From a virus, in IMG/VR virus record IMGVR_UViG_3300025018_002313: DNA of 59,200 nucleotides; one strand, given 5' to 3'. Shown in pieces: positions 37,117 through 59,200 of the stretch; within the stretch, counting starts at the first letter, position 1, and every line of letters starts with the position of its first letter. Under the pieces are notes generated by a model. The model was given only the letters and a program-made list of their open reading frames with translations, did not search any database and was not told the origin of the DNA. The translations under genes were made by a program, and so were the position numbers.

Positions 37117-37401
37117 ATGTTTTCTGCTGACCCAAAAGTGTATGATGAACTATTAAATTATACGCCAATCTCATTTGCGTTTGTAGATGGGCTACAGTTT
37201 AAAGATAGTGTGTTATCCGATTTAGCTTTAATGACTAGACTAAACGTGCCAGTTATTTGTGTTGATGATTTTACGAGAAATACAGATATAAGTCAAGTAC
37301 CTGAAGCAACAATTGAGTTTTTGAAGCAAGGTAAGTATACAGTGCAGGAGACGTTTGATAGAGGAGCAGGGCGTGTAGTAGGAGTGTTTAAAATAAAATG
37401 A
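37117..37401 (+). CDS. Hypothetical protein
   Basis: 94 aa ORF. Confidence 0.25.
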   Translation: MFSADPKVYDELLNYTPISFAFVDGLQFKDSVLSDLALMTRLNVPVICVDDFTRNTDISQVPEATIEFLKQGKYTVQETFDRGAGRVVGVFKIK

Positions 37402-42450: not shown

Positions 42451-42611
42451 CGGATGAAAGATATAGCAAACTACTAAATTTGCATGAGAGACTAAAAGAA
42501 GTAAAGAGTATGAAGAAATCTGCAGCTAAAGACTATAGAGATCAAATTAAAGAAATTGAAGAAGAAATTGAAGGATTGGTCGAAGACATAAGAGAACAAC
42601 CAGAAAAGTAA
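42447..42611 (+). CDS. Small coiled-coil protein (54 aa)
   Basis: Manual translation MTDERYSKLLNLHERLKEVKSMKKSAAKDYRDQIKEIEEEIEGLVEDIREQPEK. Its ATG overlaps the upstream stop (ATGA). Below the length cutoff of the ORF track. Confidence 0.3.
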   Translation: MTDERYSKLLNLHERLKEVKSMKKSAAKDYRDQIKEIEEEIEGLVEDIREQPEK

Positions 42612-42620
42612 TTAGGTATG

Positions 42621-42648
42621 TTGCAAAATATGGTATCGATCGTATAAT
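42621..42648 (+). promoter_or_regulatory. Sigma70-like promoter (TTGCAA, 16-nt spacer, TATAAT) directly upstream of the guaC-like gene
   Basis: ttgcaa at 42621..42626 and tataat at 42643..42648. The ATG at 42655 is only 6 nt downstream, which implies a leaderless or very short-leader mRNA. Confidence 0.3.
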
Positions 42649-42654
42649 TTAATT

Positions 42655-43671: not shown

Positions 43672-44617
43672 AATTTTAGTTACAGGTGGTTGCGGGTTTA
43701 TCGGTAGTAACTACGTCGATTATAAGTTACTAACAGATTCAAGCATAGAAATTATTTGTGTCGATACATTGGATATTGGTGGATCAGAGGATAATGTTTC
43801 TGAGTGGTCTAGAAATAGTGGACGATACAAAATGTATAATACTGATATTTGTGATGCAGATGAAATGAGTAAAATTTTTGCATATGAAATGCCAGATATT
43901 GTTGTAAATTTCGCAGCACAAACTCATGTTGATCGAAGTCTCATCGACAGAACATATTTCGCAACAACAAATGTAGTCGGTACGCAAGTAATATTGGATC
44001 AAATAATTAAGTATAAAACAAAGCGCTTTGTGCAAGTATCTACAGACGAAGTGTATGGCAGTATCGATAGCGGTCTATTCGAAGAGACATTTATGCTTCA
44101 TCCAAATAATCCATACTCTGCTACTAAAGCTGGCGCTGAGATGCTTGTACAGGCCGCAGTTCATTCATTTGGAGTTAATGCTTCTATTACAAGAAGTTGC
44201 AACAATTACGGTCCGAGACAATACCATGAAAAACTAATACCAATGGTTATTCATAATGCTCTTAAAGGTCTTCCTGTTAAAGTCTTTAATGATGGGCTAT
44301 CAATAAGAGAATGGATATATGTTCTCGACAATGTAATCGGAATTGACACAGTGGTCGAAAAAGGCAGGAGAGGTGAGGTATATAATATCGGTTCAGGTAT
44401 CGAACTTCAGAATATTGATGTAGTTACCACTGTATTAGATATTCTAGGTAAACCTCATAGTCTAATCGAATATACAAATGATCGTGCAAATGATGATCGT
44501 AGATACGCACTTAACTGTTCGAAGATATTTACTCACCTAGAATGGCGATCAAAAGTAAATTGGAAAGAAGGCATCAACCAAACGGTTGAATGGTATCTGG
44601 CAAACAAATATGAATAA
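43664..44617 (+). CDS. rmlB: dTDP-glucose 4,6-dehydratase (RmlB / RfbB, SDR family)
   Basis: 317 aa. ILVTGGCGFIGSNYV Rossmann motif, YSATK catalytic motif, and the characteristic RfbB length. Confidence 0.7.
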   Translation: MSKILVTGGCGFIGSNYVDYKLLTDSSIEIICVDTLDIGGSEDNVSEWSRNSGRYKMYNTDICDADEMSKIFAYEMPDIVVNFAAQTHVDRSLIDRTYFATTNVVGTQVILDQIIKYKTKRFVQVSTDEVYGSIDSGLFEETFMLHPNNPYSATKAGAEMLVQAAVHSFGVNASITRSCNNYGPRQYHEKLIPMVIHNALKGLPVKVFNDGLSIREWIYVLDNVIGIDTVVEKGRRGEVYNIGSGIELQNIDVVTTVLDILGKPHSLIEYTNDRANDDRRYALNCSKIFTHLEWRSKVNWKEGINQTVEWYLANKYE

Positions 44618-45416
44618 GAAAATTATAGTATTAGGTAACGGGCTACTCGGAGATGAATTCAAAAGACATGGATATACTGTCTGGGGATCAGGAGATCCGT
44701 TTTGTTACAAACACGGTGACGGTACGTACACTTATTGCTGGGAATCACTGGATCAATTTGATGTTATAATCAACTGTCTTGGTAAGACTGTAACTCGTTG
44801 GTGTGAATCTCCTTGCAATTATTCAGCTGCATTGTATGCGAATGGAACACTACCCGGACTTCTAAGCATTGGATGCAAAGAACACAATCAAAAATTCGTA
44901 CATATATCAACAGGCTGTCTATACGATATCTCAGATACACCACAAACTGAGGAAGATCATATTGTAGCACATTGCAACTATACAGTGACAAAATGGATGG
45001 GAGAACAAATATGTGCTCCATCCAGAGATCTTATTATTCGTCCAAGATTACTATATAATGATCAACCAACAGCGAAGAATTTACTAGGAAGACTTCCTAC
45101 GTTTTCCAAATTAGTCGGAAAATTAGATTCTATGACAAGTACGAACACTATAGTTGAAGCAGTTGAAGCTCTATTAAGCAACAACCAGGCTGGTATTTTT
45201 AATGTTGCAAATCGTGGCTATGTTTCTATGTATGAGGTCGGACAGATCATCGGATGTAGAGCTGAAAAAACAACGATAGAAGAAGTTCGAAAGGAAAGCC
45301 ATATTCATCTCGTTAATACTACAATGGACGTTTCAAAATTATTACAGTTTTATGATCCCGGTGATGTCCGTAGTGAAATTACAAGGTGTTGGAAAGCGAT
45401 GAATGAAGGAAGTTAA
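44586..45416 (+). CDS. dTDP-4-dehydrorhamnose reductase-like (RmlD-like) SDR
   Basis: 276 aa. IIVLGNGLLGDE, DVIINCLG, HISTGCLYD, YTVTKWMGE and IIRPRLLY parallel the RfbD motifs. Confidence 0.5.
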   Translation: MNGIWQTNMNKKIIVLGNGLLGDEFKRHGYTVWGSGDPFCYKHGDGTYTYCWESLDQFDVIINCLGKTVTRWCESPCNYSAALYANGTLPGLLSIGCKEHNQKFVHISTGCLYDISDTPQTEEDHIVAHCNYTVTKWMGEQICAPSRDLIIRPRLLYNDQPTAKNLLGRLPTFSKLVGKLDSMTSTNTIVEAVEALLSNNQAGIFNVANRGYVSMYEVGQIIGCRAEKTTIEEVRKESHIHLVNTTMDVSKLLQFYDPGDVRSEITRCWKAMNEGS

Positions 45417-47211
45417 GTTCCATAAACTCACAATTAAGAATTTCTTATCTATAGGTGACGAGCCAGTTATAATTGACTTCAAACAAGGTCTCAATATTAT
45501 AACAGGTGTTAATAAAGATAAAGAAGATAGTAAAAATGGTGTAGGTAAATCTACAATTGTAGATAGTATATCATTTGCTATTTTCGGCTCTACTATAAGA
45601 GATATTCGAATTGAAAATATTCCTAATTGGAAGACAAATAAAACCTGCGAAGTCTCAATAGAATTTACTGTCATTGATGACTATATAGAAAACAAGTATC
45701 GTATTAACCGTTCACTGGATCCATCTCGCGTTCAATTATATGAAAACGGAGATAACATCTCACGTACAGCGGCAAAGACAAATAGTAAACTCAAAAAAAT
45801 ACTAGGAACAACACCAGAGTTATTTGAGCAAAGTACTACAATGAGCATCAATCAGACAGAGCCGTTCTTAAAAAAGCGACCAGGGGTTAAGAGAAAGTTC
45901 ATTGAAGGGATCTTTAAGCTAACAGTCTTTAGTGAGATGCTAGGAATTATTCGACATGATCTAAGCGAGACAAAACGAAAATTTCATCTTGAAAAAACTA
46001 AGCTTGAGGAGATTCAAAAGTCATTAATATTGTATAAAAAGCAACAAACCGAGCACGCCAACCGCCGCAGAGACAGAATTCAAGAGCTTGAACAACGCCG
46101 GTTAGATAGTGCAAAAGAAATTAAAGAACTAAAGAATCAATTATTAGAGAGTAATGAGCCGAAAAAATTACAACTAGAGAAGAAGATTGAAACTCTCCAT
46201 AAAAAAGAGCAAGAATATGAAGCACAGATCCGTGAATCATTACAGGTAAATACAGCTGCACAGACGAGTATTTTAACGCTTCGTGAGAAAATACAAGAAA
46301 TAAATGATGTTGGTGATACTATTTGTATTACATGCAAGCGCCCATTCGAACAGAGTGATAAAGACCGATTCTTAAAACAAAAACAAGAGTATGTCGGTAG
46401 CATACAAGATCTAAACGAACAAATAGATACAATAACAAAAGAGCAAAAACAGATCGAAAATTTAAGAGCATTATGTAAAAGTGAGAGTCAAAGTATCATC
46501 CACCAAATCCATCAACTGGATATTCTTGAAACAGAAGCTGAAAATATAAAACAGCGAATTCTTCAGCGAGGTCAATGGATTAAGCAAATCGAAGTTGATA
46601 TAAATAGTCTACAAACAGAAAAAGACACTTATATAGACATTATCCAAGACACAACAAAGAGAATCAATGCGCTAACTTCTAAACAAGGAGAATTCGAACA
46701 ACTATTGGAAGTTCTAGATATATCAAAATTTGTTGTATCTGAAGAAGGTGTCAGAAGCTTTATTGTTAAAAAGATGCTAAAAATGCTCAATACGAGACTA
46801 AATTATTATTTGAAAAAGTTAGACGCTAATTGTATTTGTACGTTTGATGAGTATTTTGAAGAATCCATTTTTAACCAAAAAGGAAGACTCTGTTCGTATG
46901 CAAACTTCTCAGACGGAGAACGAAAAAGAATCGATCTAGCTATGCTATTTACGTTTCTTGATATTAGAAGACTACAATCTAATATATCAGTTAACTTCTC
47001 TTTTTATGATGAACTACTCGATTCATCACTGGATTCAAAAGGAATTGAATGTGTGCTTGAAATTCTCAAAGACCGCATAAATCAATATGGTGAAGCTGTT
47101 TATATTATAAGCCATAAAAACGAGGCTATTAAACACGCAACCGGTGAAATAATTTACCTGGAAAAACAAAACGAGGTAACAAGGAGATTAGAATATGGGA
47201 CTACAGTTTAA
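45403..47211 (+). CDS. gp46: Rad50/SbcC-like recombination ATPase, T4 gp46 family
   Basis: 602 aa. N-terminal Walker A (GVNKDKEDSKNGVGKST), a long central coiled-coil and a C-terminal signature/Walker B region (FSDGERKRIDLA...FYDE). Confidence 0.7.
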   Translation: MKEVKFHKLTIKNFLSIGDEPVIIDFKQGLNIITGVNKDKEDSKNGVGKSTIVDSISFAIFGSTIRDIRIENIPNWKTNKTCEVSIEFTVIDDYIENKYRINRSLDPSRVQLYENGDNISRTAAKTNSKLKKILGTTPELFEQSTTMSINQTEPFLKKRPGVKRKFIEGIFKLTVFSEMLGIIRHDLSETKRKFHLEKTKLEEIQKSLILYKKQQTEHANRRRDRIQELEQRRLDSAKEIKELKNQLLESNEPKKLQLEKKIETLHKKEQEYEAQIRESLQVNTAAQTSILTLREKIQEINDVGDTICITCKRPFEQSDKDRFLKQKQEYVGSIQDLNEQIDTITKEQKQIENLRALCKSESQSIIHQIHQLDILETEAENIKQRILQRGQWIKQIEVDINSLQTEKDTYIDIIQDTTKRINALTSKQGEFEQLLEVLDISKFVVSEEGVRSFIVKKMLKMLNTRLNYYLKKLDANCICTFDEYFEESIFNQKGRLCSYANFSDGERKRIDLAMLFTFLDIRRLQSNISVNFSFYDELLDSSLDSKGIECVLEILKDRINQYGEAVYIISHKNEAIKHATGEIIYLEKQNEVTRRLEYGTTV

Positions 47212-48535
47212 AGATTTAAATATACCACAAATGGGTAATGCCCAACCTGCGCCTGCGCAGCAATACACACCAACTGCACAGACCATTAATAATATCGGGA
47301 TGCCGGCCGGTATGCCACTCGGGATGCCTAATGCCGCTGTAGCAACTCAGCCAATAATAACCCAACAGAAATTACCACCACCTCAGATGCCAGGGGAAGG
47401 GTTAAAGCGTGCAGTTAACTATTATGCAGACTATGCTGGATGTGGTTGGTGGAGAATGATTCAACCTGAAACTCTACTCAATATGGAACAGAAAGCAATT
47501 ATTAATGGGTTAACTACTATGGTAGTTGATCCAAGATTCTATTTCGGAATTGAAGCAGTTAGACTACAACGTCAGGCAACTCCGGTTCAACTAGAATTTG
47601 TAAAATTCTTGAAAGCAGGATCTGCTGAACACGGGTTTAAAGTCATCTACGAGATAGATGATATCATATTTAAGGACGACATTCCTGATTTTAATCGCTG
47701 TAAGACTGCATTCGAAGATGATAGTATTCTCGCAAGCTCCATCGAGATGATGAGATTATGCGATGAAATTAGTGTTACCTGTCAATTTATGAAGGAATAT
47801 TATATCGACAAAACCGGTAATAAAAATATAACCGTTCTACCTAATTATCCATCGAGAATGTGGATGGACGGTCATTATGATCCAGTACGTTTGATGGAAA
47901 ATTATACGAAATATAAAAATAGACCTCGCGTTGCATATATCGGTTCAGGTACTCATATTGATGTAGGAAATAGAACCAATCAAAAAGATGACTTTGAACA
48001 TATTGTACAACACATTATCAAAACTCGTGATATATTCAAATGGGTATTTGTTGGTTGCTTCCCATTACCGTGCAAGCCATTTATCGACAGAGGTGAAATG
48101 GAATTTATCAGTTGGTTCCCGCTGAAGAATCTTGCAAAAGCATATACATCTATAAACTGTCAAGCAGTATATGCTCCCCTACAGGATTGTTCTTTTAATC
48201 GCGCTAAGAGTAATATTAAATATCTCGAATCTGCGTGCTGTGGTATCCCGGGTGTTTTCCAGAATATGATAACATATAAAGATGCACCTTTACGATTCGG
48301 GACAGGTGCGGAATTTATTGATCAAATAAAGGCTCTGCTTAAGGACGAGCAGACATACGAAAAATATAGCATAGCTGCCAGAGCATATGCTGATACGATG
48401 TGGCTAGATGATCATCTTGATGAGTTTGCAGAATTATACTTTACACGCATCGGAACACCTAATCGCAAAGCTCTTCTAAGATTGAATCCAGACCAAGCGA
48501 CAGCTGTAACATACGAGAATAACTTACTAAAATGA
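47195..48535 (+). CDS. GT-B-fold glycosyltransferase-like protein with a P/Q/M-rich disordered N terminus
   Basis: 446 aa. The C-terminal KYLESACCGIPGV resembles the GT4/GT-B donor-binding E-x7-E region. The first 80 aa are low complexity (MPAGMPLGMPNAA...). Confidence 0.35.
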   Translation: MGLQFKDLNIPQMGNAQPAPAQQYTPTAQTINNIGMPAGMPLGMPNAAVATQPIITQQKLPPPQMPGEGLKRAVNYYADYAGCGWWRMIQPETLLNMEQKAIINGLTTMVVDPRFYFGIEAVRLQRQATPVQLEFVKFLKAGSAEHGFKVIYEIDDIIFKDDIPDFNRCKTAFEDDSILASSIEMMRLCDEISVTCQFMKEYYIDKTGNKNITVLPNYPSRMWMDGHYDPVRLMENYTKYKNRPRVAYIGSGTHIDVGNRTNQKDDFEHIVQHIIKTRDIFKWVFVGCFPLPCKPFIDRGEMEFISWFPLKNLAKAYTSINCQAVYAPLQDCSFNRAKSNIKYLESACCGIPGVFQNMITYKDAPLRFGTGAEFIDQIKALLKDEQTYEKYSIAARAYADTMWLDDHLDEFAELYFTRIGTPNRKALLRLNPDQATAVTYENNLLK

Positions 48536-49419
48536 TAACACACATACAATTTAAGCATGGATATGCTCTAAAACTCCCATGCGTACAAGATAGAGTTTTT
48601 AAATTTACACCAGGAATTAATATCCTATTTGGACCAAATGGTTGTGGTAAATCAACTATTATAAAAACACTAAAGGCATATTGCGGTATTCAAAAGGGTG
48701 GATGGACGCAAATAAACGATCCAACTGCTATAGGAACAACTTCAACCTCTCTTGGATTTCCAATGGCGTATGCAAAATTTGCACCAGGGGAATGTTATGC
48801 AAGTGTCGGGTGGACAGGTAATCCGACATTTTTTAACGACGGAGATATAAAAGTTAGTGAGACATTCTTCTTTCAAAATGTCGGTCAATCAGAAGACGGA
48901 ATAACAACAGAGAGAGAACAAATGGAAGCATTGATGAAAAAGCCTTCATCTGGTCAATATCGAATTGATAGACTTAATAAAGTTCTTAATCTTATAACTA
49001 CACCACCTGTAGTAGAAAATATACCTGATAGAATATCACGAGCAGGTAATCAATCATTCGCTGAAAGAGAGAAACAGTATTGGCATTCTCTAGGGCAAAC
49101 TGGACCGCTAACTATTCTACTGGATGAGCCTGAGCGTTCGTTAAGTCTACCGAAACAGAAGCAGCTACTTTGTGAAGCTATCCCAAAACAAATGGGTAAC
49201 TTACAAGTTATAATTGCAACTCATAGTGTTTTTGCTTTAGAGATACCAGGAGTAAATATTATTGATATGGAACCTGGATATGTAAATGTATGCAAAGAAA
49301 TATTAAACTTTTCTAATACAGGGCAGAGTCAGTTGGAGATGCCATTAAATACTCCTTGTAGCGCGTGTGAAGAGTATAAAAGAAAACTGGAAAGAATTAC
49401 TGGTATTGTTCAATCATAA
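48532..49419 (+). CDS. ABC-type ATPase (AAA_15/AAA_21-like) with no fused effector domain
   Basis: 295 aa. Walker A GPNGCGKST and a late Walker B LLDEPERSLS, with an ABC-like long spacer between them. Confidence 0.45.
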   Translation: MITHIQFKHGYALKLPCVQDRVFKFTPGINILFGPNGCGKSTIIKTLKAYCGIQKGGWTQINDPTAIGTTSTSLGFPMAYAKFAPGECYASVGWTGNPTFFNDGDIKVSETFFFQNVGQSEDGITTEREQMEALMKKPSSGQYRIDRLNKVLNLITTPPVVENIPDRISRAGNQSFAEREKQYWHSLGQTGPLTILLDEPERSLSLPKQKQLLCEAIPKQMGNLQVIIATHSVFALEIPGVNIIDMEPGYVNVCKEILNFSNTGQSQLEMPLNTPCSACEEYKRKLERITGIVQS

Positions 49420-49477
49420 TACTGATATAATTAGTTCCTACCCTTGATTTATCTCAAAAATCCTATAATATTGATAT

Positions 49478-52060
49478 ATGTATAGAAATATTTACTATGA
49501 TTCTCGTAAGGGAACGATGAGATTATGGACCTGGAATGATTCTGGGGACAGAACAGAGATATGCGAGCCTTTTGAGCCATACATCTATGTTGAGAGTAAT
49601 CAATTTAATGATGGACTTTCTCTATTCAACACTCCACTACGTAAGCTAACATTTAAGAATGATTGGGATCGTAGACAATACGTAAAAGAGAGCGGCATTA
49701 GACGAATCTTTTACAATCTTCGTCCAGAACAGCAATTCTTAATTGATCGTTTTGGAGGACTTCAAAACGAACCAGAATTTACTCAATACCCCCTTAGAGT
49801 ATTCTTTCTTGATATTGAAACGTACTCCCCTTACTCCTTTCCCGTACCAACCCAAGCGCAGCATCCAATCAATCTAATAACAATATTCGACACACTTGAA
49901 AAGAAATATCACACGTTTGGACTAAAGAAAGACTTTACTCCTACTGCACCAAACCACACATACTACAAATGCAACTCTGAGTCAGAAATGCTAGAGAAAT
50001 TCTTACGATATTGGGAAAACAATTACCCAGATATCGTATCCGGGTGGAATAGTGAAGGTTTCGATATTCCTTATATTGTAAATCGAGTTACAAATGTGTT
50101 AGGTGAAAATGAAACTAAGAGATTATCACCTGTAGGTAGTTTATATTACAGAGAAGATGTTAGGCGTGCGTTCGGTAAAGATCTTGGGCGGTGGCATATT
50201 CGTGGTATTTCATGTGTTGACTACATGGAAGCATATAAGACATTCTCTAGAGGCGAACAAGAATCATATAGTTTAAATTATATTGCTCATGTTGAATTAA
50301 AAGAAGGTAAAGTTGCATATAACGCTACTAATCTGGCACAACTGTCTGAGCAGGATTGGAATAAATTTGTTGTTTATAACATTCAAGATGTAGATCTACT
50401 TATTAAACTTGAGGACAAACTTAGATTTCTTCAAATTTTAAGAATGATTGCATATAAAGGATTTACAACACTTGAATCGTCGATGGGAAAGATATCTGTA
50501 GTAACAGGTGCAATTGCTCAACAAGCTCTTGAAAATGGAAAAATATTCCCGACGTTCGTTAAAGATCAAATGAGTAAGTATGGTGGAGGGTTTGTAAAAG
50601 AAATTGATCCAGGATTGCATGAAAATATTATAACATTTGATGCAAATAGTTTGTATCCTAATACATTAATAAGCTTAAATCTATCACTAGAAACAAAACT
50701 AGGAAAGATAATTAATGTCGATAAGGAAAAAAATGAAGTTGAGCTGAGATTAGAAAATGGTAAAACACATCTATTGACTCCTCAACAATTTCAACAATTT
50801 ACAGAAAAGCATAAAATAGCAATTTCTAGAGCAAGAGTATTATATTCACAAAAAGAAAAGGGAGTGATACCACAGTATGTAGATAACCTATATGCTGACC
50901 GTGTCAAAGTAAAAAAGCAACTCTCAGAGCTAGAACAAAAGAATCTTAAGCTTCATAAAAATTCAAAAGAGCATAAAGCAAATTTACGACAAATTGAACA
51001 GCACGATATTATGCAGTATACTATTAAGATTTTGCTTAACTCTATTTATGGTGTGTTTGGAAATATGCATTCACCCTTCTATGATATTGATCATGCGGCA
51101 TCAATTACAAATACAGGTCAGTCTGTAATTAAAGCTGCAAATAAAATAGCAAACGAATATGTTGCTAAACAATACGGATGTACAGAAGATATAGCTGTAT
51201 ATAACGATACAGACTCAACTCACATTTCACTTAAACCATTACTGGATAAATTTGGAAAATCCTTTCTGGATGATAACGGAAACGTATCACCTTTTGCATA
51301 TGAAAAAGCCAACGAACTACAGGATGTAATTAATAAAGGAATTGAAGCTTGGGCTCATTCGTCTTTGAATTCAATAGACCCTAGATTTTACTTCAAACGT
51401 GAAGCTATTTGTGCAGTAGGAGTATATCAATCAAAGAAGCATTATATCCTTCATGTTCGTGATAAAGGTGAGTCTGATCCTATACCTTGTGATTATATCA
51501 AATACGTAGGTGTAGAGGTTGTAAGAAGTACTATGTCCGAACAGGTTAAGCGACTCATCAAAAATGTAGTCGAGTCTATAATCTATACTAAAGAGCGAGC
51601 TGCAACACTCGATGTATACAGACAAACGTATGAAGAATTTAAAAAACTTCCAGTTGAAGATATAGCATTTAGATCAAAAATCAATAACTATGAGAAGTCT
51701 GCAAAGAAAGCTAATAATTTTGTAATAGGAAAAGGCACACCGATCCATGCTAAAGCATCTATTTATTACAACTTATTATTGAAGCATTTAAAAATAGAAA
51801 CTATATATGATCCTGTTGAATCTGGGCAGAAGATAAAATGGTTTTATACAGCACCTAACAATAAATTTAATATTAAGTGTATCGCTTTTACGAACAAATA
51901 TCCAACCGAATTCGCCGATATAATAAAACCTGATTATGAATTGATGTTTGAAAAACTTATCGAACCAGCCATTAAGCGTTTCTTTGAATGTGTAAAATGG
52001 AGAATGGTTAGTATGCGAAATGAATATACATGTGACCTACTTGACTTACTTGGAATCTAG
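49478..52060 (+). CDS. gp43: Family B DNA polymerase with a 3'-5' exonuclease domain
   Basis: 860 aa. Exo I FLDIETYS, the KYGGGFV (K-x3-NSxYG region) and YNDTDSTH (DTDS) polymerase motifs. An AT-rich promoter-like region with cctataat lies upstream. Confidence 0.85.
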   Translation: MYRNIYYDSRKGTMRLWTWNDSGDRTEICEPFEPYIYVESNQFNDGLSLFNTPLRKLTFKNDWDRRQYVKESGIRRIFYNLRPEQQFLIDRFGGLQNEPEFTQYPLRVFFLDIETYSPYSFPVPTQAQHPINLITIFDTLEKKYHTFGLKKDFTPTAPNHTYYKCNSESEMLEKFLRYWENNYPDIVSGWNSEGFDIPYIVNRVTNVLGENETKRLSPVGSLYYREDVRRAFGKDLGRWHIRGISCVDYMEAYKTFSRGEQESYSLNYIAHVELKEGKVAYNATNLAQLSEQDWNKFVVYNIQDVDLLIKLEDKLRFLQILRMIAYKGFTTLESSMGKISVVTGAIAQQALENGKIFPTFVKDQMSKYGGGFVKEIDPGLHENIITFDANSLYPNTLISLNLSLETKLGKIINVDKEKNEVELRLENGKTHLLTPQQFQQFTEKHKIAISRARVLYSQKEKGVIPQYVDNLYADRVKVKKQLSELEQKNLKLHKNSKEHKANLRQIEQHDIMQYTIKILLNSIYGVFGNMHSPFYDIDHAASITNTGQSVIKAANKIANEYVAKQYGCTEDIAVYNDTDSTHISLKPLLDKFGKSFLDDNGNVSPFAYEKANELQDVINKGIEAWAHSSLNSIDPRFYFKREAICAVGVYQSKKHYILHVRDKGESDPIPCDYIKYVGVEVVRSTMSEQVKRLIKNVVESIIYTKERAATLDVYRQTYEEFKKLPVEDIAFRSKINNYEKSAKKANNFVIGKGTPIHAKASIYYNLLLKHLKIETIYDPVESGQKIKWFYTAPNNKFNIKCIAFTNKYPTEFADIIKPDYELMFEKLIEPAIKRFFECVKWRMVSMRNEYTCDLLDLLGI

Positions 52061-52087
52061 TATATTATATGATTAAGGAGAAAATAA

Positions 52088-52495
52088 ATGAGTGAACAGA
52101 AGAACATAGTAACATTTCTAGATGGTATGGAGCGTACCATTATTGGAGAACAAGTTAGCGAAGACGCTAATACAGTAGATATTCAAAATCCAGTCGTGGT
52201 AAATATCGTACCACAGGCGGATCCAAATACTGGGAGACCGACAGGCCAGATGGCATTGCAGCTGCTTCCAGTCTTTTTCAGAGAGTTCCTCGGAGATAAG
52301 GAACAACCGGTAGTATATTCTTACAGCAAGGCCAGAATTACACCTGTCACCTTCAATGGTGGTTTTGATTTTAGATTGTATGCACAGTATGATCATATCT
52401 TCAACCCAGCGAATATGCCACCAACTGAAGCACCTGTAGGGGCACCACCGAATGCAGCAGGAAATGGTCCTGTGATCAATTTGTTTAACGACTAG
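52088..52495 (+). CDS. Hypothetical protein upstream of uvsX (candidate recombination mediator or ssDNA-binding accessory)
   Basis: 135 aa preceded by a strong RBS (aaggag). Confidence 0.3.
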   Translation: MSEQKNIVTFLDGMERTIIGEQVSEDANTVDIQNPVVVNIVPQADPNTGRPTGQMALQLLPVFFREFLGDKEQPVVYSYSKARITPVTFNGGFDFRLYAQYDHIFNPANMPPTEAPVGAPPNAAGNGPVINLFND

Positions 52496-52503
52496 GAGTA
52501 ACT

Positions 52504-53610
52504 GTGGCAAAAACAGGTTTAGATGATGTACTCAGTGCAGTAGATAAAATCAATCCTGATGCGCAGGTTCTTTCCAAGAGTCCACTATCACTTGTGGACT
52601 CTTGGATCGATACCGGTAATTATGCATTGAATGCAATAATATCAGGATCATGTTATGGTGGAATTCCGGAAGGTCGTATTACAGGATTGACCGGACCGTC
52701 AGGTTGCGGTAAAACACTATTCATTAATAAGATAATAGGTAACTTTCAACGGCCTGATAAATCAAAATGGGCACTAGCGTTTGACTCTGAATTAGCAGAA
52801 GACCCACAATCTGCAGCCAGCGTGGGTGCAATTCCGGATAGAATTAAACATATACCGGTTAATACAGTCAATGAGTGTCGTAATCAATTACTTGCTTTTC
52901 TTGATAAAATTATCGAGAACAATCTACAAGGCAGCTTTATGGCCTCGATTGATTCGCTTGGTAATTTGGCAGGTACGAAAGAAATTGCAGACGCTGAAGC
53001 TGGTAAAGATGCAACTGATATGGGAACACGTGCAAAGAACATCAAATCAATGCTACGAACAATTACATATCGAGCAGCGAGATCCAAGACAACTGTATTG
53101 TTTTCTAATCATACATATAGTGATCCAACAGCTATGTACCCTTCATTAATTCAGAATCAGTCTGGAGGAGAAGGTCCGATCTATATGGCATCAGTCCTAT
53201 TACAGCTCAGTTTTAAGCGTGAAAAGAATGAGAAGGATTTCGAAATGGAAGAGATTCTATCGTCTGCAAAAAAAGTAGGTGGAATCACCATTCATGTACT
53301 TACAGCAAAAAATCGATTCATTCCTCCTATGCTTAGTACTGATGTCTATCTAAATTTCAAAACAGGGCTTGATAGGTATTCAGGTCTTTTTGAGTTAGCA
53401 AAAGGATTAAACGTGATACAGGGTGATAAGACATACACAATGATAGATCAGCATGGAGCTGAAATTAAACTAGGATATAGGAAAAATTTCGAGCGAGATC
53501 CTGATATGTGGGAAAATACTATACTACCTGTACTAGAACCAATAATTCAGCGAGAGTTTAGATTTAGCAGCGAGGTAGAACAAATTGACCGGGAAATTGA
53601 GGATCTATAA
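52504..53610 (+). CDS. uvsX: RecA-family recombinase, T4 UvsX-like
   Basis: 368 aa. Walker A GLTGPSGCGKT positioned as in UvsX/RecA; typical length. Confidence 0.7.
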   Translation: MAKTGLDDVLSAVDKINPDAQVLSKSPLSLVDSWIDTGNYALNAIISGSCYGGIPEGRITGLTGPSGCGKTLFINKIIGNFQRPDKSKWALAFDSELAEDPQSAASVGAIPDRIKHIPVNTVNECRNQLLAFLDKIIENNLQGSFMASIDSLGNLAGTKEIADAEAGKDATDMGTRAKNIKSMLRTITYRAARSKTTVLFSNHTYSDPTAMYPSLIQNQSGGEGPIYMASVLLQLSFKREKNEKDFEMEEILSSAKKVGGITIHVLTAKNRFIPPMLSTDVYLNFKTGLDRYSGLFELAKGLNVIQGDKTYTMIDQHGAEIKLGYRKNFERDPDMWENTILPVLEPIIQREFRFSSEVEQIDREIEDL

Positions 53611-53912
53611 TGACAAAATACGTAATTGGTATTGTTCATCCGAAGCGGGGTAATATATACTTACGGACTATACATAAAACTGAAGCACATGTAACAAGTA
53701 ATCGTGAGTTTATTCGACCAAGTGCTACATTTTATACACCCGACAAGGCATATCAAGCTATTGAGCAGATCAATGAACTATGGGGGAATGACAAATGGTT
53801 TTCGACACGTAGTAGTGATCTATATAAAGCAGAAAAAGTTATACTAAAATGGCATGTACCGTGTCACGGCATACAAGAAGATTTATTGATAAAAGATATA
53901 GGAGAATTCTAA
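53610..53912 (+). CDS. Hypothetical protein
   Basis: 100 aa ORF. Start overlaps the uvsX stop; its own stop overlaps the next start. Confidence 0.3.
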   Translation: MTKYVIGIVHPKRGNIYLRTIHKTEAHVTSNREFIRPSATFYTPDKAYQAIEQINELWGNDKWFSTRSSDLYKAEKVILKWHVPCHGIQEDLLIKDIGEF

Positions 53913-54718
53913 TGGTAAAAATATCCCATGAATGTCCATTTTCATTAATGGAGAAGGCACGAACTGACTTTAATGATTATGATTATTGTCTTGTTCACTT
54001 ACTTGAGAAGGATGAAAGATATCTAAATTTCTTCGTTGAATCGAAGAAAATGGGTCGCCATATTTTACTCGATAATTCAATTTTTGAGCTAGGTACAGCA
54101 TTTAATCCAGTACAGTTCGCAAAGTGGGTTGATTGGCTTAAGCCCCAGGAGTATATTATTCCCGATGTTCTTGAAGATTGTAAAGGAACTATACAAAATG
54201 CAAAAGATTGGCTTGCAACATATAGTGACTTACCAGGAATAAAGATTGGTGTTGTACAAGGAAAAACATATTCAGAGTTAGTAGAGTGCTATGAATTTAT
54301 GTCGAAAAATGTAGATAAAATTGCAATCAGTTTTGATTACAGCTATTATGAATTAACTGGGCTTGGCCATAATAAATGGCAGAAGTTTGCGAATGGTCGA
54401 CAGAATTTTATATTCCGTATGTTAGCCGAAAAGAAATGGAACTTCTGGAAACCACATCACTTGTTAGGTGCTGCAGTGCCCCAAGAGTTTAAATTTTATG
54501 CGGATTTATGGGATAACGCAAACATCCAATCTCTTGATACATCTAATCCAATTCAGCAAGCACTACTCGGACATGAATATACTATACACGGTCTTATTGA
54601 TAAAGATACAACAAAAGTAGCAGATTCATTTAATGCAGATTATAATGAAACGGACCTATCCATGTTAAGTGATAACGTCTGTATGTTCAGAAAATTTTGC
54701 AGTGGAGCAGTAAAATGA
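53912..54718 (+). CDS. tRNA-guanine-transglycosylase-fold protein, DpdA-like 7-deazaguanine DNA transglycosylase candidate
   Basis: Start moved to the ATG at 53912 (RBS ggag 7 nt upstream, TAATG overlap). HHLLGAAVPQEFKFYADLWDNANIQSLDTSNP parallels TGT HLLGVGKPDDIV...GIDMFDCVLPTRSG. ILLDNSIFELG parallels the TGT DSGGFQ region. Confidence 0.55.
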   Translation: MVKISHECPFSLMEKARTDFNDYDYCLVHLLEKDERYLNFFVESKKMGRHILLDNSIFELGTAFNPVQFAKWVDWLKPQEYIIPDVLEDCKGTIQNAKDWLATYSDLPGIKIGVVQGKTYSELVECYEFMSKNVDKIAISFDYSYYELTGLGHNKWQKFANGRQNFIFRMLAEKKWNFWKPHHLLGAAVPQEFKFYADLWDNANIQSLDTSNPIQQALLGHEYTIHGLIDKDTTKVADSFNADYNETDLSMLSDNVCMFRKFCSGAVK

Positions 54719-55257
54719 GATGGTGTGCATATTTTAGTCAAACTGGTAGCGAGATACTAGAAGTATCGAAAGCTATTAATAGGTTTCCAGATGTTGTATT
54801 TTATAATACAAACTTTGGTACTAAGCCACCTATAAATATTGAACTGATTACAGAACTGAATACACGTAAAATACCACTCCATATTCTACCGAATAAGCCG
54901 AGAGTACAAGACTATAAAACGTTCTTACTAGAAGGCGACTTATTAACTTTACACGGATGGCTAAGAATTATTCCACCAGAAATATGTGATGAGTTTGAAA
55001 TATATAACGGTCACCCTGGACTTATAACAGAGCATCCAGAACTTAAAGGACAGGATCCTCAAAAGAAAGCATATGAATTAGGGTTACCATACAGTGGGTG
55101 CGTAATTCATAAGGTAACTGCTGAAGTAGACGCGGGTGAGATAGTTCTCGCAGAAGAAATAAAAATTGAAAAATTGGAGCTTGATGTTATAATTAATGTT
55201 TTACATGATACATCAATCAAATTATGGGTAGAGTTTTTAGAGAGTAAATTGCAATAA
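54715..55257 (+). CDS. PurN-like formyltransferase (formyl_trans_N domain)
   Basis: Start at MRWCAYFSQTGSEIL, with the ATG overlapping the upstream stop. NGHPGLITEHPELKG and GCVIHKVTAEVDAGEIV match PurN/FMT N-HP-SLLP and G-TVH...D-G.I catalytic motifs. Confidence 0.6.
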   Translation: MRWCAYFSQTGSEILEVSKAINRFPDVVFYNTNFGTKPPINIELITELNTRKIPLHILPNKPRVQDYKTFLLEGDLLTLHGWLRIIPPEICDEFEIYNGHPGLITEHPELKGQDPQKKAYELGLPYSGCVIHKVTAEVDAGEIVLAEEIKIEKLELDVIINVLHDTSIKLWVEFLESKLQ

Positions 55258-55269
55258 TTAAGGAGAATA

Positions 55270-55920
55270 ATGAGAATATCTATTAGCGGATCGCAATGTG
55301 TTGGAAAGACAACACTAATTAATGATTTGTTCAGTAAGATTGAAATCAATCAACGATTCAGTCTAAGAAATGAAACTACACGAAATGTATTAAGAGACAA
55401 TCTCGGATTTGGTACTCTACCAATTAACGAGGAGGGTGGAGATCTGACACAACGATTGATCTGTTCACAGCATTTAATCAATCACGCAGCTGGGGAAACT
55501 GGAGATGTTATCTACGATCGTTGCGCATTAGATGGGTTGGTTTATACTTCATATTTATATGATGTTAATCGTGTAAGTAGAGAGACGCTTCGCATTGCGG
55601 AAGCAATTTTTGAAAATACTAAGTATGACATTATGTTCTACATTCCTCCAGAGGTTCCGTTGGAGGAAGATGGGGAAAGAAGTGTAAGCCCGTCATTTCG
55701 TAATTCAATCTGTAATTTATTCGAGGAGTATATTACCAGTTATAATCTTCAAGTCGGATACCTAAAAGGTACACGCGAAGAGAGAGTTCAGAGAATCTTA
55801 GAAACAATTAAAGCATATGATGATTATCAAAATAAACAAACAAAAATGTTTAATACACTTGATAAGAATCTGCAGAACGCAATCCAGACTATTAAAACTG
55901 ATTTACATATAAAGGAGTAA
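55270..55920 (+). CDS. P-loop NTPase / kinase-like protein, paralog B of the 20587..21273 gene
   Basis: 216 aa. Walker A GSQCVGKTT and shared downstream motifs with paralog A. Sits between the formyltransferase and queF. Confidence 0.5.
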   Translation: MRISISGSQCVGKTTLINDLFSKIEINQRFSLRNETTRNVLRDNLGFGTLPINEEGGDLTQRLICSQHLINHAAGETGDVIYDRCALDGLVYTSYLYDVNRVSRETLRIAEAIFENTKYDIMFYIPPEVPLEEDGERSVSPSFRNSICNLFEEYITSYNLQVGYLKGTREERVQRILETIKAYDDYQNKQTKMFNTLDKNLQNAIQTIKTDLHIKE

Positions 55921-55921
55921 C

Positions 55922-57037
55922 ATGCCTAATACAAGTAGTAGTGTCTTCGGGCACGGTAGACCACCACAAGGACCTGATCCAACATCTCATGCAACATTAT
56001 CCCGTCTTAATAGACCAGTTGAAGCAACTCATCTTGGACAGACTGTTGAGTATAAAACAGAATACGATCCCTCTTTACTAGTTGCAGTACCTAGACAAGA
56101 GAATCGAACAGGACTAGGAATTACTCTCGATAGTCTTCCATTTGTCGGGTACGATGTATGGAACGCATATGAAGTAAGTTGTTTGACGTTATATGGTGTC
56201 CCTTGTGTATTCATCGTTAAGATTATGTATCCCGCAGATAGTCCATCTATTGTGGAAAGTAAATCACTAAAACTATATCTTAACTCATTTAATATGTCAA
56301 AGGTTGGAATAAATCTTGAGGAAACTATAATGTTTCTACGTGCAAAGATTCGAGATGATCTTTCAAATCTGCTCGAAACGAAAGTACATGTACAATTATT
56401 TGATCCACTATTTAATGCCTCATCTCTTACTCCTCCTGGTAACTGCTTAAATAATCTACTATACAGCGACGAGTCAGAAGATTTGCAAGAAATTGTTTAT
56501 ACTGAAAATCCAAATCTTATTAAAACAGTTGAATATACTGATTTTGAGAAATACGAGTTCGAAGATAAATCTGATCCAACGCTTATTCCACAGGCTATTG
56601 AATTAATGGAAAACTGGGATACCGACAAAGAAATTCCTGAGCCACAAAAAGGGTTGGTTATGTCTCAAAAACTGTATGAAGTAGAATACACAGACCTACT
56701 TCGCAGTAACTGTAAAGTCACTCATCAACCAGACTGGGGAACAATTGTAATAGCCTATAAAGGTAAAAAGAAACTCAATCGTAAGTCACTATTGAAGTAT
56801 ATAATTTCGTTTAGAAACGAAAATCATTTTCATGAAGAGATATGTGAAGCCGTATTTACGACCCTAAAAAATAATACAGAGCTGGAAGCAGAAGAACTTC
56901 TTGTTGCATGTTTCTACACAAGACGGGGCGGTATTGATATTAATCCTATTCGTGCAACGAGCAGCAAAATGATTAATATCTTCTTTAAGGACTATATAAA
57001 CATTAACAAGCTAAGCCCGAAAGCCACAAGACAGTAA
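55922..57037 (+). CDS. queF: NADPH-dependent 7-cyano-7-deazaguanine reductase QueF (type II, YqcD-like), with an N-terminal extension and an internal insertion
   Basis: 371 aa. SLLVAVPR, ESKSLKLYLNSFN, HQPDWGT and RRGGIDINP match E. coli QueF SLLQGVPR, ESKSFKLYLNSFN, HQPDWGS and RRGGLDINP. The catalytic Cys lies in PGNCLNN. Confidence 0.85.
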   Translation: MPNTSSSVFGHGRPPQGPDPTSHATLSRLNRPVEATHLGQTVEYKTEYDPSLLVAVPRQENRTGLGITLDSLPFVGYDVWNAYEVSCLTLYGVPCVFIVKIMYPADSPSIVESKSLKLYLNSFNMSKVGINLEETIMFLRAKIRDDLSNLLETKVHVQLFDPLFNASSLTPPGNCLNNLLYSDESEDLQEIVYTENPNLIKTVEYTDFEKYEFEDKSDPTLIPQAIELMENWDTDKEIPEPQKGLVMSQKLYEVEYTDLLRSNCKVTHQPDWGTIVIAYKGKKKLNRKSLLKYIISFRNENHFHEEICEAVFTTLKNNTELEAEELLVACFYTRRGGIDINPIRATSSKMINIFFKDYININKLSPKATRQ

Positions 57038-58392
57038 TGAGCAATGAAACTGATCGAGATTTAGATTGGTCATTCTTCGAATATGTTATTGCTTATAATT
57101 GTACATTTGAAGAGACTTTTACCGCGTCAATTTATGGAGCACTAAAATTAAAATATATTTCAAATACTAATATTCGGCAGTATCTAGGTATTATTTTTGA
57201 CTTCTATAAACAACACAGTGCTCTACCAAATGCTACAGAAATAAAAACATATCTAAAGGATGACGACCTTAAAAGTGCATACAAAGATGTTGTAATGCAA
57301 TTTAAGACTCTTGATTCTTCTTACAATCAAGAAGAACTACTGAAGAACACAGAACGGTTTCTAAAAGAAAGAGCAGTATACTATGCAGTAAAGGATACTG
57401 TAGATGAGGTGTCCTCGAAATCAGATATTGATACTTCACTTATTTATAATCGATTTGAACAAGCTTGTGGTTTAACATTAATTGATGATTTAGGGTTCGA
57501 TTATTTTAACGAAATAGACCGACATATAATAGATCTTCAAACAATTGACCGTCATATATCAACTGGATTTACATGGCTCGATCAAAATCTTGGTGGTGGG
57601 TTACTTGAAGGTGGTAGAGCATTATATGCATTTAGTGGTGCTACAAATTCAGGTAAATCAATTGTCCTTGGTAACGTTACAGGTAATATAGTTTCACAGA
57701 ATCGTACTGTGGTTGTAATCACATTAGAAATGCCTGAAATGATTTATGCAAAACGAATCAGCAGTAAATTTACTAATATTCCACTAGGACAACTTAAACA
57801 AGAAGCCGATCAACTCAAAAATTATGTTATTAACTTTTCAAAGAAAAATTCAGGTGCAAGACTTATATTAAAAGAGTTCCCACCGAATAGTGTAAACGCA
57901 AATAATATTAAAGCTTATCTAACGAAACTTGTACAAAAATACGGTATAAGAATTGATGCGGTCGTTGTTGATTACTTAACACTCCTACAATCAATTATAG
58001 TAACCGGTAGTTTATATGCAGACGGTAAAGCAGTTGCAGAGCAGATTAGAGCTTTAAGTTATCCATTACATTTTGGTTGTCCGTTTGTTACTGCATTGCA
58101 AGCCAATCGTAACGCGTACGATGAAGCAAACCCGAGTATTGATACAACCGGTGAAAGTATTGGTATTCCTCAGACAGTAGATTTTCAAGCTTCTATTTGG
58201 TCCTCTGAAGCAGAAAAAGAGCTCGGAGTCATTAATATGGGACTTCAAAAAAGTAGATTTGGTCCGTGCCACGGTAAACGTGCATTTAGAATTGATTACG
58301 ACACATTAGTTATTACAGAGATGGAAGATGCATTTGGAAACACTGACGAACTACGTAGTATTGACACTGCATTAGACCAGTTAAGAAGTTGA
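57037..58392 (+). CDS. gp41: DnaB-family replicative helicase, T4 gp41-like
   Basis: 451 aa. Walker A GATNSGKS, Walker B VVVDYLTLLQ, and an arginine-finger region QANRNAYDE. Its ATG overlaps the queF stop. Confidence 0.7.
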   Translation: MSNETDRDLDWSFFEYVIAYNCTFEETFTASIYGALKLKYISNTNIRQYLGIIFDFYKQHSALPNATEIKTYLKDDDLKSAYKDVVMQFKTLDSSYNQEELLKNTERFLKERAVYYAVKDTVDEVSSKSDIDTSLIYNRFEQACGLTLIDDLGFDYFNEIDRHIIDLQTIDRHISTGFTWLDQNLGGGLLEGGRALYAFSGATNSGKSIVLGNVTGNIVSQNRTVVVITLEMPEMIYAKRISSKFTNIPLGQLKQEADQLKNYVINFSKKNSGARLILKEFPPNSVNANNIKAYLTKLVQKYGIRIDAVVVDYLTLLQSIIVTGSLYADGKAVAEQIRALSYPLHFGCPFVTALQANRNAYDEANPSIDTTGESIGIPQTVDFQASIWSSEAEKELGVINMGLQKSRFGPCHGKRAFRIDYDTLVITEMEDAFGNTDELRSIDTALDQLRS

Positions 58393-58420
58393 TTATTTTA
58401 GAGAGCTAATAAATATTATT

Positions 58421-59200
58421 ATGAAAAATATATTCGTATGGACACATCATGACTTGGATGGACTTGCAAGCTGTCTAGCAATCAAGTGGTTTCATCCTGG
58501 GTGTAAATTTGATTATATACCAACTACAGGATATACTTTCCGCAGAGATTTTACGCAGTGGTTGTTAAAGAATCGCATTAGTGATTTTGATACAGTTTAT
58601 ATTGTCGACCTAGATATAAGCGAGAATCAGGATCTAGTAGATGAAGAGAATGTAGTCATTATTGATCACCATTCAACTCATGTTAATAATGCTTCCTATG
58701 AATTTGCAACAAATACGGTAATTGAGTATTCATCTGCGGCAAAACTGATTTATAAGCTTTATAAAACAAAAACAAACATTGAACTAACAACACCACAAAA
58801 AACACTAATCGCACTCGCAGATGATTATGATTCATATAACCACGAGGTTGAAGATTCAATAATTCTCAACTCGGTTTTCTTTGCAACAACAAATAACTTC
58901 AAAACATTTATGTCGTTGTATGAGAAAGGGGTTACAGGGTTTACTCAACAGCAATTAAATATATATAACATTTATCAGAGAGATCTAAAGCAGACTATTA
59001 ATGATCTCAAATATTTTGAAAATAAAAAGTTAAAAATAGGTAAAAATTCATATCATATAATAGCAACATCTGCAACGGGATTCATAAATAATATTGCGGA
59101 TCATATTTTAGATAATTATAGCCCTGATATAGCTATCGTTGTTAATCCGAAAACAAAACATGTTAGCTTTCGCCGTAACACAAAAGTCGATTTGGATCTT
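58421..59200 (+). CDS. DHH-family phosphoesterase (RecJ/NrnA-like), partial; the ORF runs off the right edge of the window
   Basis: Manual translation MKNIFVWTHHDLDGLASCLAI...VVIIDHHSTH with DHH motifs I (HHDLDG) and III (DHH). No stop codon before position 59200. Confidence 0.5.
   Translation, partial: MKNIFVWTHHDLDGLASCLAIKWFHPGCKFDYIPTTGYTFRRDFTQWLLKNRISDFDTVYIVDLDISENQDLVDEENVVIIDHHSTHVNNASYEFATNTVIEYSSAAKLIYKLYKTKTNIELTTPQKTLIALADDYDSYNHEVEDSIILNSVFFATTNNFKTFMSLYEKGVTGFTQQQLNIYNIYQRDLKQTINDLKYFENKKLKIGKNSYHIIATSATGFINNIADHILDNYSPDIAIVVNPKTKHVSFRRNTKVDLDL

Follow-up and report, generated by a model that had tools for sequence, protein, structure and literature searches.

The present analysis concerns a four-gene cassette in the IMG/VR record IMGVR_UViG_3300025018_002313, a 59,200-nt stretch of T4-like phage DNA that is referred to below as the window. 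The cassette is located on the plus strand between the genes of UvsX and the gp41 helicase and encodes, in this order, a transglycosylase of the DpdA3 type with a tRNA-guanine transglycosylase (TGT) fold (53912–54718, 268 aa), a putative DpdN-type formyltransferase of the PurN superfamily (54715–55257, 180 aa), a NadR-RNK-like P-loop kinase of the AAA_28 family (55270–55920, 216 aa), and a bimodular QueF, the reductase converting 7-cyano-7-deazaguanine (preQ0) to 7-aminomethyl-7-deazaguanine (preQ1) (55922–57037, 371 aa). The position and translational coupling of these genes agree with the initial annotation of the sequence, and their junctions either overlap by 1–4 nt or leave 1–12 nt between the genes. 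The DpdA3 and formyltransferase genes share an ATGA overlap; 12 nt separate the formyltransferase and kinase genes and 1 nt separates the kinase gene from queF, and an AAGGAG ribosome-binding site was found at each of these two junctions. The start of the formyltransferase gene had been placed at 54718, which is one codon late, since the gene begins with the ATG at 54715, which shares nucleotides with the stop codon before it and agrees with the gene call in the Logan contig L018. This contig is 100% identical to positions 43912–59200 of the window and adds 5.5 kb to it. The GC content of the cassette (0.344–0.365) equals the window mean (0.361), and therefore there is no sign of recent acquisition of the cassette.

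The first gene product had been described as a TGT-fold DpdA-like protein. No significant match was found for it among Pfam and NCBIfam profiles or PDB sequences, and the anticipated hit to a TGT/DpdA profile was thus not obtained. As for the structure, the protein has a TIM barrel of the TGT type with the catalytic aspartates, and its nearest structural neighbor is the DNA enzyme DpdA. The residues invariant in the family include D54 in the LDNS motif, D85, HLLG at positions 183–186, and D209 in SLDTS; the HLLG and SLDTS motifs align locally with HLLG...SIDS of DpdA. Amino acid identity was 48% over 99% of the length with DpdA3 of the Flavobacterium phage immuto_2-6A, 45–46% over 88% with the proteins of the Campylobacter phage CP220 group, and 28% over 66% with CGPG_00065 of the Cellulophaga phage phiST. 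The immuto and CP220 proteins were previously assigned to the DpdA3 subfamily (Hutinet 2023, PMC10516641). Judged by its relatedness to the immuto, CP220 and phiST members, the 53912–54718 product belongs to this phage subfamily. In addition, its gene is associated with other 7-deazaguanine genes, namely, queF in the cassette, queC in the window and folE outside it. The initial annotation had compared the cassette with the bacterial Dpd systems; this comparison holds in that both are 7-deazaguanine DNA-modification modules, but the closest relatives are phage DpdA3 proteins and not bacterial Dpd proteins. DpdA of Salmonella Montevideo, which acts with DpdB and DpdC (PMC10164549), is a 413-aa protein; its barrel carries four insertions and, unlike DpdA3, it has a CxCx2Cx22H Zn site, and its sequence similarity to the window protein is not significant (E=1.3). 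The window protein contains neither a CxCxxC...H Zn site nor the large nucleic-acid-binding insertion Ins8; the segment from strand beta8 to the terminal helix comprises about 35 residues, versus 128 in bacterial DpdA. The extent of modification in bacterial Dpd systems is also low (<0.1% of G; Hutinet 2023, PMC10516641).

The second gene product shows similarity to the formyltransferase domain Formyl_trans_N (PF00551, E=4.6e-13), as expected by the initial annotation, which had named a genuine PurN acting on glycinamide ribonucleotide (GAR) as the alternative. The score against the PurN equivalog model TIGR00639 argues against this alternative: it was 49.4 bits, with a cut-off of 150.1 bits, and residues 72–152 alone could be aligned. 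The protein is 50% identical to gp67 of immuto, the founding DpdN. Its residues N98, H100 and D139 align with the catalytic Asn-His-Asp triad of PurN and are conserved across 80 DpdN sequences, and the folate-site motifs are also retained. Among related loci, 86 contain both DpdN and QueF, with DpdN placed between DpdA3 and the kinase or QueF, whereas QueF occurs without DpdN in 42 loci. DpdN without QueF was observed in six loci, all of them on contigs that end within 57 nt past the kinase gene. Thus, wherever this can be tested, DpdN is found only where QueF is present, which fits an enzyme acting on the product of QueF. On these sequence grounds the formyltransferase is classified as DpdN-type and not as PurN. 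An FSQTGSE loop is invariant in DpdN; it is located at what we take to be the position of the GAR-phosphate loop of E. coli PurN, and alignments of DpdN with PDB structures do not reach this N-terminal region. The transfer of a formyl group by DpdN to the 7-aminomethyl group is a prediction even for immuto (Hutinet 2023, PMC10516641).

The QueF assignment was confirmed by two Pfam matches, both above the cut-off (QueF_N, PF14819, 1.4e-35; QueF, PF14489, 2.7e-22). The motifs quoted in the initial annotation could be placed in the alignment with Vibrio cholerae QueF, where ESKSLKLYLNS, the catalytic Cys in SNCKVTHQPDWG, QPDWG and HFHE are aligned. The protein thus carries the NADPH motif together with the catalytic Cys, Asp and His of bimodular QueF. 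Its N-terminus is extended by 33 aa, among which Pro, Gly, Ser and Thr are frequent. Relative to V. cholerae QueF, about 52 additional aa are inserted between the module that binds NADPH and the catalytic one, so that residues 130–242 correspond to residues 115–175 of the V. cholerae protein. This insertion is probably the cause of the slightly low score against TIGR03138 (265 bits, cut-off 293).

The preQ0 synthase QueC is encoded at 13133–13873 on the minus strand, as annotated initially, 40 kb from the cassette (PF06508, 1.8e-48; 149.1 bits against TIGR00364, cut-off 150.3). The queC gene is followed by genes for a NADAR-domain protein (12412–12939, minus strand, TIGR02464, 123 bits) and a DUF366 protein (11793–12401, minus strand, matching PDB 2ddz); the trio of QueC, NADAR and DUF366 was not seen in related loci. 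FolE, QueD and QueE had been reported as missing from the window, and a tblastn search of the window indeed found none of them. The suggestion that the phage carries such genes elsewhere or draws on the host pool proved right for FolE, which is phage-encoded: past gp41, contig L018 contains the genes for a DHH/DHHA1 protein, two small open reading frames (ORFs), gp32 and then folE (L018:17376–18035, equivalent to window positions 61287–61946; PF01227, 2e-48), about 2.1 kb past the window end and 4.2 kb downstream of the cassette. The ORFs of 245, 137 and 206 aa that follow folE were considered as candidates for QueE and QueD and rejected, having no similarity to them; judged by eye from its sequence, the 245-aa product is presumably a sliding clamp.

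As for the kinase, it matches Pfam AAA_28 (E=7.8e-19) and shows an RNK-like fold with Walker A, Walker B and lid motifs. Its structure model, with a predicted local distance difference test (pLDDT) value of 91, is nearest to vaccinia thymidylate kinase (structural comparison score 15.8), Drosophila deoxynucleoside kinase (15.5) and human deoxyguanosine kinase (15.3), versus about 8.9 each for guanylate kinase and polynucleotide kinase. The family profile aligns with NadR at the Walker B region and the lid motif DDGxRS. According to the model, the protein is an enzyme with a nucleoside/nucleotide-kinase fold and not a DNA-binding ATPase. The names of its homologs in databases are "thymidylate kinase" (PHROG 2107) and "nicotinamide riboside kinase" (JGI). 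The protein does not match a curated TMK model, however, and its score against the NadR equivalog is 20 bits (cut-off 341). Unlike NadR and NARP3, it has neither an NMNAT domain nor a PnuC neighbor; it is a stand-alone kinase whose genomic partner is DpdA3. The first homologs retrieved with the kinase alone were all AAA_28 proteins, and in each of the contexts examined they were encoded between a Formyl_trans_N gene and queF.

A second AAA_28 paralog of 228 aa is encoded in the window at 20587–21273 on the minus strand (AAA_28, 2.4e-09), next to an RNA-ligase-like gene (21654–22883). Its identity with the cassette kinase is 29%, and it belongs to a family of its own, which comprises 105 proteins on large phage contigs, some of them also matching dNK (PF01712). 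This paralog may or may not be part of the system; CP220 likewise has two AAA_28 paralogs, one of which adjoins a dUTPase gene. Cellular AAA_28 homologs (22–34% identity) were rejected as a clue to the substrate, their neighborhoods being mutually unrelated (membrane protein, oxidoreductases, integrase, ThyA-like gene), and the closest matches in cellular "genomes" were mis-binned phage contigs. In a Cerasicoccus frondis contig (L202:4853–8443), an AAA_28 homolog is encoded between a phage-type integrase and a 456-aa protein of the thymidylate-synthase family; this region may be a prophage nucleotide-modification island.

Immuto_2-6A was the sole GenBank phage with DNA similarity to the cassette. 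Its genes are arranged in the same order, namely, DpdA3, a small ORF, the formyltransferase (annotated as "phosphoribosylglycinamide formyltransferase"), a "thymidylate kinase" and QueF; identity with the window proteins was 48% for DpdA3, 50% for DpdN, 36% for the kinase and 41% for QueF. The two phages differ in their backbones, since the window phage is T4-like, with PolB, UvsX and gp41, whereas immuto has PolA. In immuto, the genes of QueD, QueE and FolE and a MazG-like gene are located directly upstream, whereas in the window phage QueC and FolE are encoded at the distances given above; the 52-aa insertion in QueF of the window phage is a further difference. Analysis of immuto DNA by liquid chromatography–tandem mass spectrometry previously revealed no dG and 345,000 residues of 2'-deoxy-7-(formylamino)methyl-7-deazaguanosine (fdPreQ1) per 10^6 nt, and the names DpdA3 and DpdN were introduced in the same study (Hutinet 2023, PMC10516641).

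The gene identities, folds, catalytic motifs, synteny and co-occurrence described above make it very probable that the cassette serves this T4-like phage as a 7-deazaguanine module of the DpdA3 type for DNA hypermodification, the same four-gene unit as in immuto_2-6A. In the proposed pathway, FolE, QueD, QueE and QueC would convert GTP to preQ0, and QueF would reduce it to preQ1; DpdA3 would establish the N-glycosidic bond by exchanging the base against guanine, and DpdN would formylate the aminomethyl group with a formyl-folate donor. Virion DNA would then contain fdPreQ1 in place of most or all dG and be protected against restriction. The nature of the product and the completeness of the replacement are predicted from homology with immuto. 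Several points weigh against this interpretation. The formyl group and the complete replacement are extrapolated from a relative with 36–50% protein identity. The activity of DpdN is a prediction, also in immuto (PMC10516641). Finally, neither the window nor the 5.5-kb extension of L018 yielded QueD or QueE, and hence host functions or genes located far away may be needed for the pathway. An N-formylated base had been put forward in the initial annotation, and it is indeed the expected product; it is not a new idea, since fdPreQ1 and DpdN were published in 2023 for immuto_2-6A (PMC10516641), and the type of cassette is already known. What is new here is that a T4-like lineage joins the phages predicted to replace guanine with formyl-dPreQ1.

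To assess the genomic association of the kinase, 80 IMG/VR loci retrieved with the DpdA3 profile and 73 further loci retrieved with the kinase profile were compared; a locus was considered testable if at least 2.5 kb of sequence was available downstream (DpdA3-retrieved loci) or upstream (kinase-retrieved loci). The kinase gene was present in all testable DpdA3-retrieved loci (62/62), in three of which the two genes overlap by a few nt, and DpdA3 was present in all testable kinase-retrieved loci (59/59). The surveyed kinases form 42 clusters at 70% identity. The architecture DpdA3-DpdN-kinase-QueF was found in 67 loci, DpdA3-kinase-QueF in 39, and DpdA3-kinase without QueF in 9; the last group includes T4-like relatives with only DpdA3 and the kinase in the uvsX-to-gp41 slot. 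Among 50,697 GenBank phage records, kinase homologs were limited to the immuto phages, Campylobacter Firehammervirus phages and a group of Streptomyces phages. In the Campylobacter phages CP220, CPt10, CP21, CJLB-12, IBB_35 and F379, the kinase gene is located about 40–120 bp downstream of the DpdA3 gene. In addition, a remote homolog of the kinase is encoded directly upstream of a DpdA3-like gene in the Bacillus phage BSTP12 (hhalign probability 86.6%, E=4e-6), and in the Cellulophaga phage phiST the position of the kinase is taken by a P-loop protein (AAA_18) that is not homologous to it. No kinase gene was found in the cluster of phage CAjan, which has DpdA1 and partial replacement.

The adjacency therefore holds on unrelated backbones with changing flanks (PolB of T4-like phages, PolA of immuto, Campylobacter myophages and Bacillus phages). 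The kinase tracks DpdA3 rather than DpdN or QueF, and this partnership is conserved in phage lineages that are unrelated to one another. The initial annotation had noted that such a kinase has no role in known pathways; this stands, and its linkage to DpdA3 extends the claim. The word "kinase" is absent from the paper describing the family, the supplementary tables of which could list the kinase, and the neighboring genes of phiST were dismissed there as not conserved (Hutinet 2023, PMC10516641). DpdA3 is credited with 100% guanine replacement, yet it is invariably encoded beside a kinase-fold protein ignored by the literature.

Several further proteins were examined as possible kinase-family members or partners and rejected. 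CAjan gp40 is not a cryptic kinase. In phiST gp041 and in the P-loop domain of CP220 gp055, the P-loop alone could be aligned with the kinase, and they are analogous at most. The "methyltransferase" encoded beside the kinase homolog in Streptomyces phages was considered as a hidden DpdA3, but it proved to be a genuine FkbM methyltransferase that does not resemble DpdA3. CP220 gp055 (L103:4862–5893), encoded immediately upstream of DpdA3, combines an HD phosphohydrolase and an AAA_33 kinase domain in a single fusion protein and could contribute to the pathway as a nucleotide hydrolase/kinase or, alternatively, act in RNA repair. Clusters of the freshwater type are arranged as FolE-x-DpdA3-DpdN-kinase-QueF-x-QueC-x-DCD-x-QueD; between QueC and QueD (L014:12419–13563, about 40 loci) they encode a 205-aa protein with weak matches to class-II glutamine amidotransferases and a protein with the dCTP-deaminase/dUTPase fold. 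In contigs L222 and L223, a DCD-like gene directly follows the DpdA3 gene.

The Firehammervirus phages (CP220, CPt10, CP21) offer a second comparison. Their DpdA3 is 45–46% identical to that of the window and is followed by an AAA_28 kinase with 30–34% identity, and, as in the window phage, there are two kinase paralogs per genome. They differ in the absence of QueF and DpdN, in the end product, which is the 7-amido derivative 2'-deoxy-7-amido-7-deazaguanosine (dADG), and in the HD and AAA_33 fusion protein as a neighbor. Complete G replacement in the CP220 group and the occurrence of the ADG nucleoside in the cytoplasm of CP220-infected cells are given here as cited in Hutinet 2023 (PMC10516641).

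The linkage of the kinase to DpdA3 suggests a step at the nucleoside or nucleotide level behind complete guanine replacement. Tentatively, DpdA3 may generate a (deoxy)nucleoside or nucleotide of 7-deazaguanine that the kinase then phosphorylates, the modified base entering DNA at least partly via the dNTP pool. More tentatively still, a salvage-like two-step route can be envisaged in which DpdA3 and the NadR-RNK-like kinase both work at the nucleoside/nucleotide level and the replacement is pre-replicative. DpdA3 would swap guanine for 7-deazaguanine on free deoxyguanosine or dGMP, the kinase would (re)phosphorylate the product, DpdN would formylate the mononucleotide, as PurN does with GAR, and the phage polymerase would incorporate the modified dNTP. 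Pre-replicative parallels are hydroxymethylcytosine (hmC) in T4 and 2-aminoadenine in S-2L. In the hmC pathway of T4, gp56 acts as dCTPase, gp42 as dCMP hydroxymethylase and gp1 as dNMP kinase. The likeness to this pathway is one of analogy: the logic in each case is that complete replacement is reached by combining a base-altering enzyme with a dedicated small nucleotide kinase and, in some DpdA3 clusters, with a dNTP hydrolase, and the replication module houses these genes in variable slots. The difference is that there is no homology between the two systems and that no hydrolase of canonical dGTP was identified in the window.

A nucleotide-level role is favored by the fold of the kinase, which is of the nucleoside/nucleotide-kinase type. 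It is also favored by the contrast in the extent of modification, since replacement is complete in all three chemically characterized DpdA3 phages and does not exceed 30% in phages with DpdA1, DpdA2 or DpdA4 (PMC10516641). The ADG nucleoside reported for CP220-infected cytoplasm, as cited there, points in the same direction. The same is true of the failure of DpdA3 alone to modify DNA in E. coli, and of the remark by the family authors that other enzymes may be required; DpdA3 is not known to have been reconstituted. In addition, several clusters contain genes of the dNTP-hydrolase type, namely, MazG-like ones in immuto and phiST and DCD/dUTPase-like ones in clusters of the freshwater type. 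The invariance of the FSQTGSE loop of DpdN, at the presumed position of the PurN phosphate loop, is a further argument.

Other observations weigh against such a role. To our knowledge, every characterized TGT/DpdA enzyme works on a polymer, and the closest structural neighbor of the window protein is, as noted, a DNA enzyme. No dGTP-clearing enzyme was found in the window, and the HD-AAA_33 protein of CP220 may be no more than a kinase/phosphatase for RNA repair. The missing Zn site, the missing Ins8 and the acidic pI of DpdA3 were considered as evidence for a small-molecule substrate and rejected, as DpdA1 of CAjan is alike: this validated DNA-modifying enzyme also lacks CxCxxC and has a pI of 6.3. 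The absence of the Zn site thus separates the phage subfamilies from bacterial DpdA and TGT, and is no argument against a DNA substrate. Finally, the family authors propose post-replicative insertion. A gene of the GMP-reductase/IMPDH family is located at 42655–43671 on the plus strand (PF00478, 1.3e-78; the best NCBIfam match, GMP reductase, is below the cut-off), and its product could drain GMP in a phage that is predicted to eliminate dG; as a case of DpdA3-linked dGTP depletion it was rejected, since many jumbo phages have homologs of it, whereas immuto and CP220 have none.

A post-replicative model is less likely than the nucleotide-level role but is the best of the alternatives. DpdA3 would insert preQ1 into finished DNA, DpdN would formylate either free preQ1 or dPreQ1 in DNA, and the kinase would recycle the released guanine: a phosphoribosyltransferase would convert guanine to GMP, the kinase would convert GMP to GDP, and GTP would be regenerated to feed FolE. 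The homologs of DpdA are DNA transglycosylases, the best structural match of the window protein among them, and post-replicative insertion is what the literature proposes for all DpdA subfamilies. A thymidylate-kinase-like fold would suit a nucleoside monophosphate kinase, and the kinase was detected solely in phage groups with complete replacement, where recycling matters most. A small phosphoribosyltransferase gene does occur in many clusters (P-D-G-A-N-K-F...) and in immuto, but these are a minority of the loci, and it is absent from the window. The kinase, moreover, invariably adjoins DpdA3, a linkage tighter than that of FolE, QueC, QueD or QueE, and the hosts already own Gmk.

The strict adjacency and frequent start/stop overlap of the DpdA3 and kinase genes also suggest a complex, in which the kinase would be an ATP-hydrolyzing helper of transglycosylation at the DNA level, a functional analogue of bacterial DpdB. 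The ATPase activity of DpdB, enhanced by DNA, is needed for the insertion of preQ0 by bacterial DpdA, and the failure of DpdA3 alone in E. coli would be in keeping with the need for such a helper. This is nevertheless improbable, because the kinase is a single-domain fold of 177–216 aa with a lid and with no recognizable DNA-binding module, whereas DpdB is a DNA-enhanced ATPase, presumably ParB-like and without sequence kinship to the cassette kinase. The probability left over by these three readings falls to a kinase unrelated to the pathway. A reading of the formyltransferase and kinase genes as ordinary metabolic auxiliaries (PurN, together with a thymidylate/dNMP kinase or a nicotinamide riboside kinase for NAD+ salvage) is very improbable: although the database names of their homologs agree with it, phage NadR-like enzymes do rebuild NAD+ (NARP3), and AAA_28 homologs occur in other contexts such as Streptomyces phages and cellular genomes, the PurN equivalog score is one third of the cut-off, DpdN is never found without QueF where this can be tested, the kinase has no NMNAT domain or PnuC neighbor, and it stays adjacent to DpdA3 on unrelated phage backbones while the flanks change.

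The kinase partner makes the mechanism and the timing of complete 7-deazaguanine substitution, before or after replication, directly testable. If the nucleotide-level route is true, DpdA3 would be without precedent among TGT-fold enzymes in acting on a mononucleoside or mononucleotide; enzymes for 7-substituted 7-deaza-dGTPs would become available, and the annotation of such phage genomes would change.

The region surrounding the cassette (49.5–58.4 kb) is a single co-directional string of genes on the plus strand. Upstream of the cassette are the genes of a gp43-type DNA polymerase (49478–52060), a 135-aa protein and, as the left flank, RecA-like UvsX (52504–53610, identified with Pfam), followed by a 100-aa ORF (53610–53912) between uvsX and the DpdA3 gene; the right flank is the gp41 helicase gene (57037–58392, DnaB_C, Pfam). 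TAATG overlaps connect uvsX with the 100-aa ORF, this ORF with the DpdA3 gene, and queF with the gp41 gene. The 100-aa ORF has no matches in Pfam, NCBIfam or PHROG, and its counterpart was seen solely in the closest relative (contigs L002/L109); probably, it is lineage-specific and lies outside the module. In the 49–59 kb interval, promoter-like sites did not exceed the expectation from shuffled sequences, and terminator-like sites numbered 10 versus 4.1 ± 2.3 in shuffles, every one of them intragenic. The gp41 gene is followed by that of a DHH/DHHA1 phosphoesterase (58421–59200, plus strand, continuing at L018:14510–15427), a 305-aa protein with a weak match to archaeal RecJ; a DHH/DHHA1 gene follows gp41 in all T4-like relatives that have DpdA3 and the kinase in the uvsX-to-gp41 slot.

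In several relatives, the cassette is located between the polymerase gene and the 135-aa ORF/uvsX, which corresponds to the slot of gene 42 and beta-gt in T4, and in other relatives it is located after gp41. The cassette is thus a mobile unit within variable slots of the replication region. The initial annotation had placed the T4 glucosyltransferase genes in the uvsX-to-41 interval and near gene 47. The gene order in T4 is 43 - imm - 42 - beta-gt - segA - uvsX - 40 - 41, so that the uvsX-to-41 interval holds only gene 40 and beta-gt is located between 43 and uvsX, whereas alpha-gt does adjoin 47. The idea that T4 modification slots are reused for a different base modification survives in a corrected form, with the relatives that carry the cassette in the gene 42/beta-gt slot.

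Other genes of the window were also inspected. Directly upstream of a gp46-like gene, an island of sugar-modifying genes (37398–45416, plus strand) encodes a family-2 glycosyltransferase, a sulfotransferase, a WbqC-like protein, a FkbM-type methyltransferase-like protein, an NDP-sugar epimerase/dehydratase and an RmlD-like reductase; the candidate targets of this island are DNA, a virion protein or the host surface. Two likely homing or mobile endonucleases were found on the minus strand, namely, a helix-turn-helix and DUF7487/TnsA-like protein encoded at 5439–6434 between a gp15-like gene and a helicase gene, and a GIY-YIG endonuclease of the SegE type at 28191–28619.

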